64,000 nucleotides of DNA from an uncultured delta proteobacterium (GTDB taxonomy: Bacteria; Desulfobacterota; BSN033; UBA1163). The stretch spans positions 32,001 to 96,000 of the forward strand of contig CAWHBU010000004.1 in assembly GCA_963827685.1 (NCBI GenBank). Direction: 5' to 3'. Each line of letters begins with the position of its first letter. Position 1 is the stretch's first letter. Made by a program: the position numbers and the translations under genes. The notes beneath the pieces were generated by a model. That model made no database searches and had not been told where the DNA came from. It saw only the letters and a list, made by a program, of their open reading frames with translations. Below are positions 54,860 to 60,587 of this stretch, in pieces.

Positions 54860-55394
54860 AATACCTGTTGAATACCGCCCAGCTCTGCTGGGCGGATGAA
54901 AACAGGTTCGCGAAGCGATAAGACATGGTATAAGTACTGCATGAGCTCGATAAAAAGAACAAGCCATGCGGTCTACGATTTGAAATATCATATGGTATGG
55001 GTTCCCAAATATCGGAAGATGATATTGGGAGGTGAGTTGGCAAAAAGGCTTAAGATGAGTTTTGAGCAAATATCGGAGAGGTACGAGTTTGAGATAGATA
55101 CGATGGAGGTAAAGGATGATCATGTTCATTTATTTTTGTCTGCCCCTCCTCGGTATTGTCCGGCAGAGATTGTGCAGATCATAAAGAGTATCTCGGCGAA
55201 AATGGTGTTCAAGCAGTTTCCAGAGGTGAAGAAAGAGCTTTGGGGTGGAGAGTTTTGGAGTGATGGGTATTTTGTTCGGTCTGTTGGAGACAAAGTTACC
55301 TCTGAAGTCATACGTCGCTATATAAAGTATCAGCAACAGGAGCAATTAAGTTTTGAATTTTAATGCCCCGCAGCTCTGCTGCGGGGTTCTTTAC
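54860..55394 (+). mobile_element. IS200-type element (ends approximate)
   Basis: Subterminal hairpins CCGCCCAGC-tct-GCTGGGCGG (54875-54895) and CCCCGCAGC-tct-GCTGCGGGG (55366-55386) flank tnpA. Confidence 0.85.
54941..55363 (+). CDS. tnpA: IS200/IS605 Y1 (HUH) transposase
   Basis: YHMVWVPKYR, DHVH (HUH), FWSDGYF, catalytic YIKYQ. Confidence 0.95.
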   Translation: MSSIKRTSHAVYDLKYHMVWVPKYRKMILGGELAKRLKMSFEQISERYEFEIDTMEVKDDHVHLFLSAPPRYCPAEIVQIIKSISAKMVFKQFPEVKKELWGGEFWSDGYFVRSVGDKVTSEVIRRYIKYQQQEQLSFEF

Positions 55395-55419
55395 TGAATG
55401 GTGCTTGACTCTTTAATGA

Positions 55420-55560
55420 TCATTCAACAATTCTAACGCAGTTCTGGCTTCCAAATTCATTCGGGACACAGCCGGCGCAGGAAGGATCATTTTCCCAGTC
55501 GCCATCTTTGAGAAACCGATATTCATATCTTCCTGGCTTCAAAGGGAGAGTTGTTCTCCA
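55420..55560 (-). pseudogene. 3' fragment of a CBM48/AMPK-type glycogen-binding domain gene
   Basis: Startless frame WRTTLPLKPGRYEYRFLKDGDWENDP...VPNEFGSQNCVRIVE*. Confidence 0.75.
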
Positions 55561-55561
55561 T

Positions 55562-55714
55562 CTACTTTCCCTTCACATGGCACTGGGTGCACATCGTCGG
55601 GCCGGCAGGTTTGTTGGCTTTCTTTAGCTCATCATGGCAACCCTTGCAGGTAATATGAAAAGCATCGTTGACTGAGGGCGTATTCCCCTCCGCACCGGCC
55701 TTGTGACACTGTGA
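55562..55714 (-). pseudogene. 3' fragment of a class III (c3-type) multiheme cytochrome gene
   Basis: SQCHK...[34 protein letters not shown]: two intact CxxCH plus a partial one, with no start or signal peptide. Confidence 0.8.
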
Positions 55715-55764
55715 ATTTTTGAATTAAGAGAAATAGTCTTCTTAAAAATATTTTGAAAAAACAC

Positions 55765-55793
55765 TTGATATTTTTTGAAGATTATATTAAATT
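55765..55793 (+). promoter_or_regulatory. Putative sigma70 promoter of the met leader
   Basis: TTGATA-N17-TAAATT upstream of leader 1. Confidence 0.4.
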
Positions 55794-55841
55794 TGGTTTA
55801 AGTCAATTTTTGTAACAGTATGAGGAGCACTTTTGAGCCAT

Positions 55842-55943
55842 ATGGAAACGAGAGGGATTCCAGAAGTTTTTCCAAAAGAATCTATGATGATGTGCATGAT
55901 GGCCATGTGTTATCATAATGGTAGGGGAGGCCCGTCCATGTAA
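55842..55943 (+). CDS. Met/Cys-rich leader peptide 1 (33 aa)
   Basis: METRGIPEVFPKESMMMCMMAMCYHNGRGGPSM*; GAGGAG upstream. Confidence 0.8.
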   Translation: METRGIPEVFPKESMMMCMMAMCYHNGRGGPSM

Positions 55944-55973
55944 CGTCATCGGGATATTTTTCTAACGCCAGGC

Positions 55974-56015
55974 AACCCACTACCCAAAGAAATGGTCAGT
56001 GGGTTTTTTATTTTT
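55974..56015 (+). terminator. Attenuator terminator 1
   Basis: AACCCACTACC...GGTCAGTGGGTT followed by TTTTATTTTT. Confidence 0.85.
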
Positions 56016-56064
56016 GTAATCATTTAACCAAGTAACTAAAAACTAAAGAGCGTAATTAAGCCAT

Positions 56065-56175
56065 ATGAAAACGATAATAACTCCAGGGAACTTTTTAAAA
56101 AAACTTAACCGATCTATGATAATGTGTTGCATGACCATGTGTTGTCTGCTTGGTATGGGAGGTCCGCCTATGTAA
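56065..56175 (+). CDS. Met/Cys-rich leader peptide 2 (36 aa)
   Basis: MKTIITPGNFLKKLNRSMIMCCMTMCCLLGMGGPPM*; paralogous to leader 1. Confidence 0.8.
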   Translation: MKTIITPGNFLKKLNRSMIMCCMTMCCLLGMGGPPM

Positions 56176-56207
56176 ACATCATTATAGTAGCGTTTGTATT
56201 GTCGGAT

Positions 56208-56249
56208 AACCCACTACCAAGAGAAATGGTTAGTGGGTTTTTTGTTTTT
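56208..56249 (+). terminator. Attenuator terminator 2
   Basis: AACCCACTACCA...TGGTTAGTGGGTT followed by TTTTGTTTTT. Confidence 0.85.
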
Positions 56250-56251
56250 AA

Positions 56252-57652
<1,401 letters not shown>

Positions 57653-57658
57653 ACAGAG

Positions 57659-58918
57659 ATGTCAGTGTTAAGTTCATTGTCTAATAAAATGGATAGGGTT
57701 ACAGGGGCATCTAATGAGAATGCCGGTGTTCCGGGACAGGATTTGAAGACAAGGGCGAGTAATAGCGTGGGTCTTGTGCAAACAAAGTATTTTCATTTTG
57801 CACTTCCGCCCAATGAACTCATCCTGGAGGGTGGTGAAAAGCTCGGTCCAATTACGGTCGCTTATGAGACCTACGGCAAACTGAATGATCAGCGATCCAA
57901 CGGCGTTCTCATTCTTCATGCCCTCTCAGGCGATGCCCATGCTGCGGGTTTTCATAGAAGAGAAGAAAATCCAGGGTGGTGGGATAATATGATCGGGCCG
58001 GGCCGGGCCTTTGATACGAATAAATATTTCATTATTTGTTCAAACGTTCTCGGAGGTTGCAGGGGAACCACCGGTCCATCTTCCATCAACCCCAAGACAG
58101 GGAAAAAATATGGTCTCGATTTTCCAATCATTAGTATTTCAGACATGGTCAATGTGCAAAAGCACTTGATTGATCATTTGAAGATCGACCGGCTGCTTTC
58201 AGTGGCAGGCGGTTCAATGGGTGGCATGCAAGCCTTAGAGTGGCTGACTGCTCATCCAGAACGGCTGAAGAGTGCGATCGTTATTGCAACGGCGGCAAAG
58301 CATTCACCGCAGCAGATTGCATTTCACGAAGTCGGAAGGCAAGCGATTATGGCTGATCCTCACTGGAAGGAGGGTCATTATTACGGTGGGCTTCCTCCCG
58401 CAAAAGGGCTTTCCGTCGCCCGTATGATCGGTCATATCACCTATATGAGCGAAATCTCAATGGCGGAGAAATTCGGAAGGCGTTTGAGTCACAACGGGAA
58501 ACCCCATAAACTTAGCATCGGTTTTAAAGTAGAGGAATACCTGCACAACCGGGGGGATCATTTTGTGAAAAGGTTTGATGCCAATTCTTATCTCTATATC
58601 ACGAAGGCCATAGACTCTTTCGATGTTTCACGGGGCAAAGAACTCTATGAAGTATTCAAGGGGAATAAAGCTAAAGTCCTTGTTCTGGGATTTAAGTCGG
58701 ATTGGCTCTACCCGGCTTCTCAATCAAAGGAAATTGTAAAGGCTTGCAAGTTGACAGGGGTGGATACGACCTATTGTGAGATCGATTCAACTTATGGACA
58801 CGATGCCTTTCTCCTTGAGGTTGAGGAGGAGACACATCTCATTAAACATTTTCTACACAAGGTATCTTTTGAACAAGGGGTAATAGATGAATATGAGGTA
58901 AGGGAATATGCAATCTGA
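57659..58918 (+). CDS. metX: Homoserine O-acyltransferase
   Basis: [14 protein letters not shown] nucleophile elbow, RFDANSY, SDWLY, GHDAFL. Start uncertain. Confidence 0.95.
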
Positions 58919-59510
58919 ACCTCCTTCGTTAGAACACAGGGCCATCCTTAATTGGGTCAGGCGAGGCTCTTCCGTGCTCGATCTCGGTTGCGGCGACGGG
59001 GTATTATTGGATCTCCTTGTCCGAGAGAAGAGTGTCAGGGCCCAAGGCATTGAGATTGATGAACAGGCCATCTATCAATGTGTTGCCAAAGGACTAAGCG
59101 TATTCCATGAAGACATCGATCATGGCTTATCCGACTACTCAGATCAGTCTTTTGATTATGTGGTACTCAATCAGAGCTTCCAGCAGGTGAAAAATCCTGA
59201 CATTGTATTGAAGGAAGCCTTAAGAGTAGGCAGAGAAGTCATCGTCGGTTTCCCTAATTTTGCCCATTTCCTGGCTCGTTTGCAGATATTCTTTAAGGGC
59301 AAAACGCCAGTGACACCTTCCCTGCCATACGAATGGCATGATACCCCTAATCTCCATTTTTTAAGTATTTCAGACTTTACCGCGTATTGCCATCGGAGAA
59401 ACATTAAAATAGAGAAGGAGTCTTTTATTGGAAGAAATAGAAGAGTGAGGATATTCCCAAATCTTTTTGCGTTGGCAGGAATCTTTCTCATTTCAAATGG
59501 ATCCACCTAA
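58908..59510 (+). CDS. metW: Methionine biosynthesis protein MetW
   Basis: [28 protein letters not shown]; overlaps the metX stop. Confidence 0.93.
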
Positions 59511-59570: not shown

Positions 59571-60587
59571 GTGCCGATGAAAGAACAGTTCTATATCCAA
59601 TGGCATATTACCAACCTTTGCAATCTTCGTTGCCAGCACTGCTATCAAGACGATTTCTCAAAGAGGAACGATCTGGATTGGGCAGGGCTTAAGAAGGTAT
59701 GTGATAACCTCCTCAACACAATGAGGGATTGGGATAAAACAGCCTGTATTCATCTCACGGGCGGCGAGCCTTTATTAAAACCCGAGCTATTTCCCCTCCT
59801 CAATCATTTAGACCAGCATTCAATGGTTGAAGAGTTGGGGATCATCACCAATGGTCTTCCCATTGATCGAGAGACGATGAAGAGGTTATCTGGGTTTTCA
59901 AAATTAAGGAAAATAAAGATTTCTCTGGATGGAGGGAATGCAGAGACGAATGATTCCATTCGTCAAAAGGGAACTTTCGATAAGGTAATGAAAAATATTC
60001 CCTTGATCAAAAGGGAAGAAAGATTTGAGATCATTTTAATGCTCACTGCTATGAAAAGAAATTTTAGGAGCCTTCTATCTCTCTTCAAGCTCTGTCAGGA
60101 TTTAGGCATTGATGGATTGATCATCGAACGGTTCATTCCTTTAAGCAGAGGAAGAGAAAGCTTGGATGAAGTGCTAAGTAAGGAAGAATGGAAAGAAATG
60201 ATAGGAATGCTTTCAGATTTTATCTCAACCCAAGAAGAGGATTCCTTTTTTCCTTACCAAGCCTTTCAGATCGGTTTCAGTGGAGAGGAGGCGGAACTAT
60301 TGGGTGCTCCTTGTGTCATTGGAGTGGATGGTCTTTGCATCATGCCTGAGGGAAGTGTTTTTCCCTGCCGAAGATTTCCCATTTCAATAGGAAACCTTTT
60401 GGAAACCCCCTTAAAACAGATATGGGAAGAATCAGAACTTTTAGAGAAATTGAGAAGGAAAGGGAACCTCAAAGGGAAATGCGGAAGCTGTGAGATAAGA
60501 GACTGCCGAGGTTGCCGAAGCCTGGCACTCGCTTTGACAGGTGACTTTCTGGAAGAAGACCCACACTGTTCGTATCAGGACGTTTAG
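59571..60587 (+). CDS. Radical SAM protein with SPASM domain
   Basis: CNLRCQHC, TGGEP, ISLDG; SPASM C...G...G.VFPC...CGSC...CRGCR...DPHC. Confidence 0.92.
   Translation: MPMKEQFYIQWHITNLCNLRCQHCYQDDFSKRNDLDWAGLKKVCDNLLNTMRDWDKTACIHLTGGEPLLKPELFPLLNHLDQHSMVEELGIITNGLPIDRETMKRLSGFSKLRKIKISLDGGNAETNDSIRQKGTFDKVMKNIPLIKREERFEIILMLTAMKRNFRSLLSLFKLCQDLGIDGLIIERFIPLSRGRESLDEVLSKEEWKEMIGMLSDFISTQEEDSFFPYQAFQIGFSGEEAELLGAPCVIGVDGLCIMPEGSVFPCRRFPISIGNLLETPLKQIWEESELLEKLRRKGNLKGKCGSCEIRDCRGCRSLALALTGDFLEEDPHCSYQDV

Follow-up and report, generated by a model that had tools for sequence, protein, structure and literature searches.

Tandem leader-peptide units as candidate methionine/cysteine attenuators upstream of metY-metX-metW in an uncultured delta proteobacterium

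In textbook accounts, methionine genes are controlled by MetJ/MetR, S-adenosylmethionine (SAM) riboswitches, T-boxes or SahR. The locus described here raises the question of how the metY-metX-metW genes of an uncultured delta proteobacterium are regulated. In the 64,000-nt stretch of DNA that was analysed (the window; contig CAWHBU010000004.1, positions 32,001 to 96,000), the region 55820–56250, directly 5′ of these genes, consists of two diverged copies, a and b, of one unit, in which a short open reading frame (ORF) that contains a run of Met and Cys codons is followed by a terminator hairpin. Comparative and folding analyses make it likely that each unit is a ribosome-mediated (leader-peptide) transcription attenuator of metY-metX-metW, reading charged Met-tRNA and, less strictly, Cys-tRNA. 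The features of the locus are as follows.

55765–55793, + strand: promoter-like site TTGATA-17 nt-TAAATT, 5′ of leader a
55833–55943, + strand: leader ORF a; TTG start at 55833 or in-frame ATG at 55842 (33 aa); TAA at 55941–55943
55884–55910, + strand: putative regulatory codon run a (segment 1), M M M C M M A M C
55886–55950, + strand: predicted anti-antiterminator hairpin a, Met/Cys run paired with the ORF end and the first bases past the stop; −26.3 kcal/mol
55920–55936, + strand: segment 2a (GGTAGGGGAGGCCCGTC), predicted antiterminator 5′ strand
55968–55984, + strand: segment 3a, predicted antiterminator 3′ strand plus terminator 5′ arm (AACCCACTACC, 55974–55984)
55974–56009, + strand: predicted intrinsic terminator a; 3′ arm 55994–56005, T-run up to 56009; −14.0 kcal/mol
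56065–56175, + strand: leader ORF b; 36 aa, ATG start, TAA at 56173–56175
56116–56145, + strand: putative regulatory codon run b (segment 1), M I M C C M T M C C
56118–56183, + strand: predicted anti-antiterminator hairpin b, with the helices of the family consensus; weak in the window copy, −10.6 kcal/mol
56152–56168, + strand: segment 2b (GGTATGGGAGGTCCGCC), predicted antiterminator 5′ strand
56203–56218, + strand: segment 3b; CGGAT pairs with GTCCG of segment 2, and CCCACTACC is common with the terminator
56208–56243, + strand: predicted intrinsic terminator b; 3′ arm 56228–56239, T-run up to 56243; −15.0 kcal/mol
56354–57652, + strand: metY (O-acetylhomoserine sulfhydrylase / homocysteine synthase), the first gene under the proposed control; PF01053, TIGR01326 at 665 bits (cut-off 495)
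57659–58918, + strand: metX (homoserine O-acetyltransferase); NF001209 at 505 bits (cut-off 331)
58908–59510, + strand: metW; PF07021, TIGR02081 at 242 bits (cut-off 189.5)

The proposed mechanism may be set out with reference to these segments. Transcription would begin at a single promoter 5′ of leader a. With Met and Cys plentiful, the translating ribosome would reach the stop codon and cover segment 2 (GGTAKGGGAGGNCCG), and the terminator would form. Once the ribosome has gone, the Met run would pair with the end of the ORF; the terminator hairpin would again form and transcription would halt. A ribosome stalled on the Met/Cys run, the end of which lies 7–13 nt 5′ of segment 2, would leave that segment free to pair with the terminator 5′ arm and the bases just upstream of it in two helices, so that the terminator would be blocked and the polymerase would continue into metY. 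The last Met codon of the run starts 15 nt 5′ of segment 2, and a ribosome waiting there should therefore leave segment 2 free; the two Cys positions that follow end 6 nt before it. The stop codon lies 5 nt past segment 2, and a ribosome positioned at it should cover the segment, which is the logic of the trp operon. Translation of the leader, stalling and a response to amino-acid supply are presumed in this scheme. With two units in series behind one promoter, as in the window, read-through would be needed twice.

A preliminary description of the locus had drawn attention to the two ORFs, their Met/Cys runs, the terminators and a 223-nt period, all of which were recovered in place. Between units a and b the distance is 223 nt from ATG start to ATG start and 234 nt from terminator to terminator, and the units share 72% identity over the core aligned by the family model described below. 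Run a (ATG ATG ATG TGC ATG ATG GCC ATG TGT) holds 6 Met and 2 Cys in 9 codons, and run b 4 Met and 4 Cys in 10. The peptides end in G-R-G-G-P-S-M-stop (unit a) and G-M-G-G-P-P-M-stop (unit b). Bulged hairpins of the form AACCCACTACC...GGT(C/T)AGTGGGTT, each with a T-run, begin 31–33 nt past the stop of each ORF; because their stems are bulged, neither leader terminator was listed in a simple terminator scan of the window. The three genes downstream all score above the curated NCBIfam cut-offs.

Related leaders were sought among other genomes. When the window region was compared by BLAST with 60 relatives, 13 places in 12 genomes were significant (E ≤ 2e–9), and a small ORF with the same terminal motif is present at each of them. 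Fifteen units were then used to build a covariance model, which gave 18 matches, at 112–156 bits, in 15 of the 55 genomes of the window's family; the 13 genomes from elsewhere in the class gave none. Across the phylum, an even sample of 151 genomes added a single diverged copy (G201, 42 bits); weak matches in that search (E from 1e–4 to 0.1) came from 14 genomes, among which inspection covered G201. A scan with a degenerate pattern added 14 genome records and 75 metagenome contigs, and the model confirmed 96 units, 78 of them distinct, the scan loci included. The pattern-matched records are labelled as uncultured delta proteobacterium or as metagenome-assembled genomes of Thermodesulfobacteriota. 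The scan pattern forces five run codons (the Met positions) and GGGAGG, and conservation of these letters counts only in the 18 units found without it, in which they are likewise invariant.

The element contains a conserved ORF with Met/Cys codons. The frame is open in all 78 distinct sequences, and the stop falls at the same aligned place in 75. The N-terminal 14–24 codons are unrelated between lineages, while the C-terminal half of the peptide is conserved. The motif AGCCATATG(G/A)AAACGA, which the preliminary description had made part of each unit, is shared by the two window units only and is not general in relatives, whose N-termini are unrelated. The runs contain 4–6 Met codons in 8–9 codons; run positions 3, 6 and 8 are Met throughout the 18 units that were found independently of the pattern, and Cys, which the pattern leaves unconstrained, stands at four other run positions in 70, 56, 56 and 34 of the 78. 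A crude genome-wide scan for leaders of other amino acids returned 30 matches, mostly of the Trp-pair type, but it missed the Met leaders themselves and so carries no weight.

The association with metY is close. In the window's family metY (E ≤ 1e–100) occurs in 15 of the 55 genomes, and these are the leader-bearing genomes apart from two, G005, where 31 nt separate the start of metY from the end of the contig, and G009, where the leader lies at a contig end; leader and metY occur together at all 14 assessable loci. Counted over the distinct units, metY is found downstream in 74 of 78, at 28–67 nt from the leader match in 60, at 102–106 nt in 9, at 280–341 nt in 4, which are the upstream copies of tandems, and past an intervening XdhC-like gene in 1 (L134). 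The four leaders without metY next to them are a broken leader before thiE, a second copy in genome G006 before an XdhC-like gene, a copy on a contig with 227 nt of flank, and a divergent copy before a pyridoxal phosphate (PLP)-dependent (PALP) enzyme.

Of 72 units, 64 have a −35/−10 site with a score of 9 or more out of 12 on the upstream side of the leader, and in 59 of the 72 the −35 is an exact TTGACA. Before metY in the window, the site at 55765–55793 is the only one on the + strand besides two weak ones within ORF b, and the window promoter scan found none on the + strand between terminator b and metY. Since such sites lie upstream of the leader and none between terminator b and metY, the arrangement of the sequence implies that metY must be transcribed through the terminators; where metY follows within 28–67 nt of the match (60 of 74 units), there is no room for a second promoter. 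In an RNA library whose contigs come from a relative only, one contig of 1361 nt (98 differences in 706 nt) reaches from terminator b into metY. Contigs do not mark RNA ends, and the library may contain DNA; as evidence of read-through the contig is a weak hint at most, and no weight was given to the stretches of the window without cover in the RNA run (55700–55963 and 56052–56183).

The RNA of the family can adopt both of the mutually exclusive folds on which attenuation would depend, as had been proposed for the two units in the window. For the off state, a consensus fold and pair counts over the 78 sequences were used. The main helix of the terminator is 99.2% paired, with a U-run next to it, and contains compensatory pairs at columns 124:167 (AU 46, GC 28) and 128:163 (AU 53, GC 12, GU 12). 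The helices that join the run to the ORF end and the bases past the stop are 91.7% and 96.9% paired, and a small hairpin that closes segment 2 on itself is 89.5% paired. These anti-antiterminator helices show little covariation because both of their strands are coding or nearly so.

For the on state, all sequence through the end of the run was masked, as a stand-in for the stalled ribosome, and the RNA was cut before the 3′ arm of the terminator. All 78 of the resulting minimum-energy folds pair segment 2 (GGTAKGGG) with the 5′ arm of the terminator (CCCACTACC), and the next bases (G-GTCCG and variants) pair with those just 5′ of the terminator arm. In the window itself, the segments GGTAGGGG (at 55920) and GGTATGGG (at 56152) each match the complement of their terminator 5′ arm but for one bulge, in agreement with the complementarity first described. 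The outer helix of the antiterminator is 96.8% paired in an alignment that was not fitted to the antiterminator structure, and its pair 49:132 is UA in 43 sequences, CG in 22, UG in 10 and other in 3; an independent MAFFT alignment gave the same result. The inner helix occurs in 36 sequence variants. Its column 58, which corresponds to the third position of a Gly codon, forms a UA pair in 38 sequences, UG in 8, CG in 15 and GC in 16.

The first codon past Gly-Gly varies (P 48, A 16, L 11, etc.), as does the second (P 59, S 9, L 5, etc.), while the helix is kept; the base 5′ of GGAGG is G in all sequences, though the codon to which it belongs encodes R, M, K, L, T or V. Because the pairing and this G are kept while the residues change, the pattern of substitution indicates that the constraint acts on the RNA and not on the peptide. 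In the window the calculated energies are −18.6 and −19.0 kcal/mol for the antiterminators and −15.0 and −14.0 kcal/mol for the terminators, so that the predicted antiterminator is at least as stable as the terminator. Taken together, the conserved ORF and codons, the terminator, the exclusive antiterminator with its compensatory changes, the run hairpin and the upstream-only promoter support the trp/his-type logic on comparative grounds, as the preliminary description had supposed.

Several results weigh against this interpretation and temper its strength. When the full-length RNA is folded with the run masked, the minimum-energy fold retains the terminator in 69 of 78 sequences; equilibrium folding therefore cannot reveal the switch, and the antiterminator would have to win kinetically, by analogy with trp. 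The shuffle control gives a weak to moderate signal, with 11.0 pairs observed and 6.8 for shuffled G-rich segments, and 10% of the shuffles of segment 2 reach the observed median. Pairs taken from per-sequence folds are canonical by construction. The covariation of the outer helix concerns one column and probably reflects few independent events among related sequences. At a fixed register only about 55–78% of the inner-helix cells are paired, and three clades pair in shifted registers; since the second model run on the antiterminator did not re-register those clades, these counts understate the helix. Unit b as a whole folds no better than shuffled sequence (z = +0.20). A Shine–Dalgarno (SD)-like motif lies 3–16 nt 5′ of the first ATG in only 28 of 72 units, and the true start codons of the leaders are uncertain for this reason. 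About 60 of the 78 sequences came from the pattern that forces the five Met-position codons and GGGAGG. Finally, limitation for Met should lower initiation as well, which favours termination in classic attenuators.

The duplication in the window poses a question of its own. The preliminary description had regarded the units as two serial gates, one Met-weighted and one Met/Cys-balanced, giving AND-like control. The serial part of that proposal is borne out: none of the three copies of unit b that were examined has its own promoter-like site (score 7), and for that reason the gates are serial. That the two units differ in function, with one gate tuned to Met and the other to Met plus Cys, and were selected for AND-like or sharpened control is a tentative reading that is rather doubtful. 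The ORF, terminator and antiterminator are intact in both window units, the codon contents differ (6 Met + 2 Cys in a, 4 Met + 4 Cys in b), and the read-through probabilities of serial gates would multiply. Tandem units were found only in the window, in genome G010 (95% identical DNA) and on the metagenome contigs L090 and L103; the other metY loci examined have one unit before metY, and the two leader copies of G006 are at different loci. In those three other sources unit a reads T-M-M-C-F-M-x-M-C, with 4 Met, fewer than in the window, and the stop of unit b has changed from TAA to TCA, which extends the ORF by 4 codons and should uncover segment 2 at termination. A tuned AND logic is doubtful because of this lost stop, and the codon make-up is not conserved even among near relatives. 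This part of the earlier proposal is not supported. Unit b is 87% identical to single-copy leaders and 72% to unit a, the nearest outside relatives of which are at 78%. From these sequence comparisons the tandem is probably a fairly recent duplication, a local elaboration, and the changes in units a and b of the three other sources look like drift after duplication.

The end of the leader ORF has a further peculiarity. GGGAGG is invariant (alignment columns 52–70; window 55920–55943 and 56152–56175), including A55 and G56, which are unpaired in every proposed helix. The SD-like GGAGG lies exactly 7 nt 5′ of the last sense codon, which is ATG in 70, GTG in 5, TTG in 1 and another codon in 2 of the 78, with the stop directly after it in 75. 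Such a GGAGG might act as a signal that 'parks' the ribosome, or as part of a start-stop feature. A combined scheme, which is improbable as a whole, would make the element a dual sulfur-amino-acid sensor in which (i) two serial attenuators behind one promoter give a steeper, multiplicative response in this species, and (ii) a parking or start-stop site, formed by GGAGG-N7-terminal AUG (or GUG/UUG)-stop, holds the ribosome on segment 2. If this were true, termination would also depend on the supply of initiator or elongator Met-tRNA at the last codon, and the objection that Met starvation blocks translation of the leader would be eased.

The same region could be read in another way, namely that the nascent peptide G-x-G-G-P-P-M-stop arrests the ribosome in response to free methionine or SAM, as TnaC does, with the identity of the run codons secondary. 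The conserved C-terminal motif, mostly Pro-Pro (P in 48 and 59 of 78), the fixed position of the stop and the invariant GGAGG, whose A55 and G56 are not explained by the proposed helices, are compatible with such an arrest. Other residues (A, L, R or S), however, stand at the Pro positions in 30 and 19 of the 78 while the RNA pairing is kept; moreover, a ribosome arrested at the stop codon would mask segment 2, which favours termination, and the Met/Cys codons upstream would go unexplained. Peptide arrest of this kind is accordingly very unlikely.

Equally little probability attaches to an RNA switch that binds a metabolite or a protein, with the ORF incidental. The alternative structures are conserved, as such a switch would have it, and no known regulator was identified at the locus; but the frame is open in 78 of 78 sequences despite unrelated N-termini, the stop is fixed, and Met/Cys codons are far above background. 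Nor does the element match a described RNA family: no Rfam family reached its gathering score in 55300–56500, and the same holds for the leader locus of G201 and for 29 further metY loci from the phylum. The best match in the window region was RsaJ, at 29 bits against 100 and to the terminator hairpin only; this and the other weak matches (BTnc060, psm_mec and the rest) were rejected, being far below gathering and confined to the terminator hairpin or AT-rich spacer. RF00162 (SAM-I) and RF00230 (T-box) were not found in this genome, whereas the control genomes match.

A radical SAM/SPASM gene lies at 59571–60587 (+), 61 nt past metW; it is below every NCBIfam cut-off, its best match being AhbD-like at 170 bits against 500. 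Recognition sequences of peptides that are ribosomally made and post-translationally modified (RiPPs) are usually in the N-terminal half of the precursor. The least probable explanation is that the small ORFs encode functional Met/Cys-rich peptides such as radical SAM/SPASM precursors, the hairpins being merely their terminators. In its favour are this neighbouring gene, the conserved C-terminal half, and a radical SAM homologue that lies no more than 6 kb downstream in 7 of the 13 loci whose flank is 5 kb or longer. Against it, the enzyme is absent from 6 of those 13 loci whereas metY follows 74 of 78 units, the N-terminal half is unconserved, residues past Gly-Gly vary with the pairing kept, the third position of one codon covaries with a partner in non-coding sequence, and the gap of 28–67 nt between element and metY in 60 of 74 units is too small for a separate promoter.

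Ribosome-mediated attenuation is thus retained as the preferred reading, and some unusual copies and neighbouring sequences deserve mention. A PLP-dependent PALP-family enzyme, possibly cysteine-synthase-like, follows the leader at L078 789–1750. An XdhC-family maturation factor stands behind the leader at L134 2363–3703, where metY comes next, and behind the second copy of G006 (L046 1501–3094). At L107 6251–6460 (−) the N-terminal part of the leader is broken by in-frame stops, thiE-like and other genes lie next to it, and metY was not found within 6 kb; this leader looks like a decayed or relocated remnant. Behind an intact-looking leader at L172 / L052 (G019:C5), metY contains 4 TGA and 1 TAG and is split in blastx, and is probably a broken gene or an assembly error. 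The copy in G201 (L136, G201:C2, 1497–1700, −), from a different family of the phylum, has a Cys-rich ORF, C-C-C-M-D-M-R-C...W-G-G-L-L-M-L-N-stop, and a terminator directly 5′ of a second metY gene. As only 1 of 21 genomes of its order carries such a leader, its distribution suggests that leader and metY were transferred together; the gene just 5′ of it we take, from its N-terminal sequence, to be an Rrf2-type regulator. Two other candidates were set aside: a Bacteroidota-labelled pattern match (L058), which has no model match and was taken as chance, and an 'MMTMM' ORF before metY in three genomes of one genus, which is an off-frame reading of an Asp-rich coding region.

In the window, the 105-nt spacer between terminator b and metY, of the longer type (102–106 nt, against about 28–67 nt) that nine units have, holds four copies of (C)ATTCG at about 10-nt spacing (56292–56328, +) and a 16-nt inverted repeat, and could be a protein-binding site or an insertion. 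About 400 nt 5′ of the leader promoter lies an IS200/Y1-type transposase gene (PF01797; 54896–55363, +), with a strong 10-bp hairpin directly past it (55365–55387). Stop-to-stop frames without a start codon occupy 55420–55723 (−). From their translations, we take the frame at 55562–55723 to be a c-type cytochrome-like fragment with CxxCH motifs, and that at 55420–55572 presumably resembles a fragment of a carbohydrate-binding (AMPK-beta/CBM48-like) domain; together they are probably a gene remnant between the insertion sequence and the met leader.

It remains to compare the element with known systems. The classic leader-peptide attenuators are those of the enterobacterial trp, his, thr, leu, ilv and pheA operons. 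With these the units share a short ORF with codons for the end product, the pairings 1:2, 2:3 and 3:4 and a terminator that precedes the first gene; sensing of several amino acids, as proposed here, is also a property of the thr and ilv leaders. Unlike them, they have Met and Cys codons, occur in uncultured Thermodesulfobacteriota-type genomes, show no sequence or Rfam relation, are longer (14–24 codons before the run) and have an antiterminator of two helices. For attenuators of this type see also Naville and Gautheret (PMC2965389).

Leaders with Met or Cys codons have been predicted before. In Campylobacter jejuni, MetL (20 aa, 3 Met codons) lies upstream of metBA on a short RNA that terminates shortly past the stop codon of the ORF (Porcelli et al. 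2013, PMC3847290), and its start was confirmed by translation initiation site (TIS) profiling (bioRxiv 10.1101/2022.11.09.515450). It resembles the present leaders in being a short ORF with Met codons before methionine-synthesis genes, for which attenuation by stalling was proposed; the available portion of that account contains no analysis of alternative structures or covariation (PMC3847290). In Streptomyces lividans, metL is a leader peptide predicted in a single genome, leaderless, before the transporter operon metNIQ and without a typical Rho-independent terminator (PMC8079986). Its C-terminal part likewise alternates Cys and Met and its operon is methionine-related, whereas the leader here has a terminator and precedes a metY synthesis operon. 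Both were treated as analogues, the elements being too short for a meaningful homology search. The polycysteine upstream ORFs of mycobacteria form a leaderless, Cys-responsive attenuator of operon expression (bioRxiv 10.1101/834739); they contain Cys only, are from another phylum, and share with the present element the Cys codons in a short upstream ORF. The claim of novelty in the preliminary description is accordingly narrowed, Met leaders having already been predicted (PMC3847290, PMC8079986), and stands for the tandem form: a full-text literature search, whose scope excluded subscription journals and supplementary files, found neither this element nor tandem leader-peptide attenuators.

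Other modes of methionine control are documented nearer to the present lineage. An S-box (SAM-I) riboswitch with a terminator precedes met genes of Geobacter and Desulfuromonas (PMC545781), and SahR occurs in other delta-proteobacteria, among the MetJ, MetR, SahR, SamR and riboswitch systems of the Proteobacteria (PMC4239095); neither 'leader peptide' nor 'attenuat' is present in the latter. The proposed element would share with the S-box feedback control of methionine synthesis and a terminator/antiterminator output, whereas the S-box and SahR sense SAM or S-adenosylhomocysteine (SAH) directly or via a protein. The met 5′ untranslated region of Xanthomonas resembles a SAM-I aptamer and not a leader peptide (PMC6230763). 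A dual tandem THI riboswitch in Desulfovibrio, for which the authors leave open refined control or a remnant of recombination (PMC545781), is likewise made of two complete terminator-type gates in series before one operon, but those gates are riboswitches.

Methionine is the amino acid with the least documented leader-peptide attenuation, and the published Met leaders were each predicted in a single lineage, with no analysis of structure. In the present family, the architecture of three pairings is complete in 78 natural variants, including compensation across the boundary between coding and non-coding sequence. The anatomy of the element, its alternative pairings and its gene context are conserved. 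They offer a system for asking whether stalling at Met codons can regulate, Met being needed for initiation too, whether Cys codons add a second input, and what a duplicated attenuator does to a dose-response. A candidate regulator is thereby assigned to metY in a poorly known lineage of uncultured anaerobes, and the sequence data would justify a new RNA family model. In its proposed mechanism the element belongs to the classic class of trp and his; what is new is its specificity, its lineage and its sequence.

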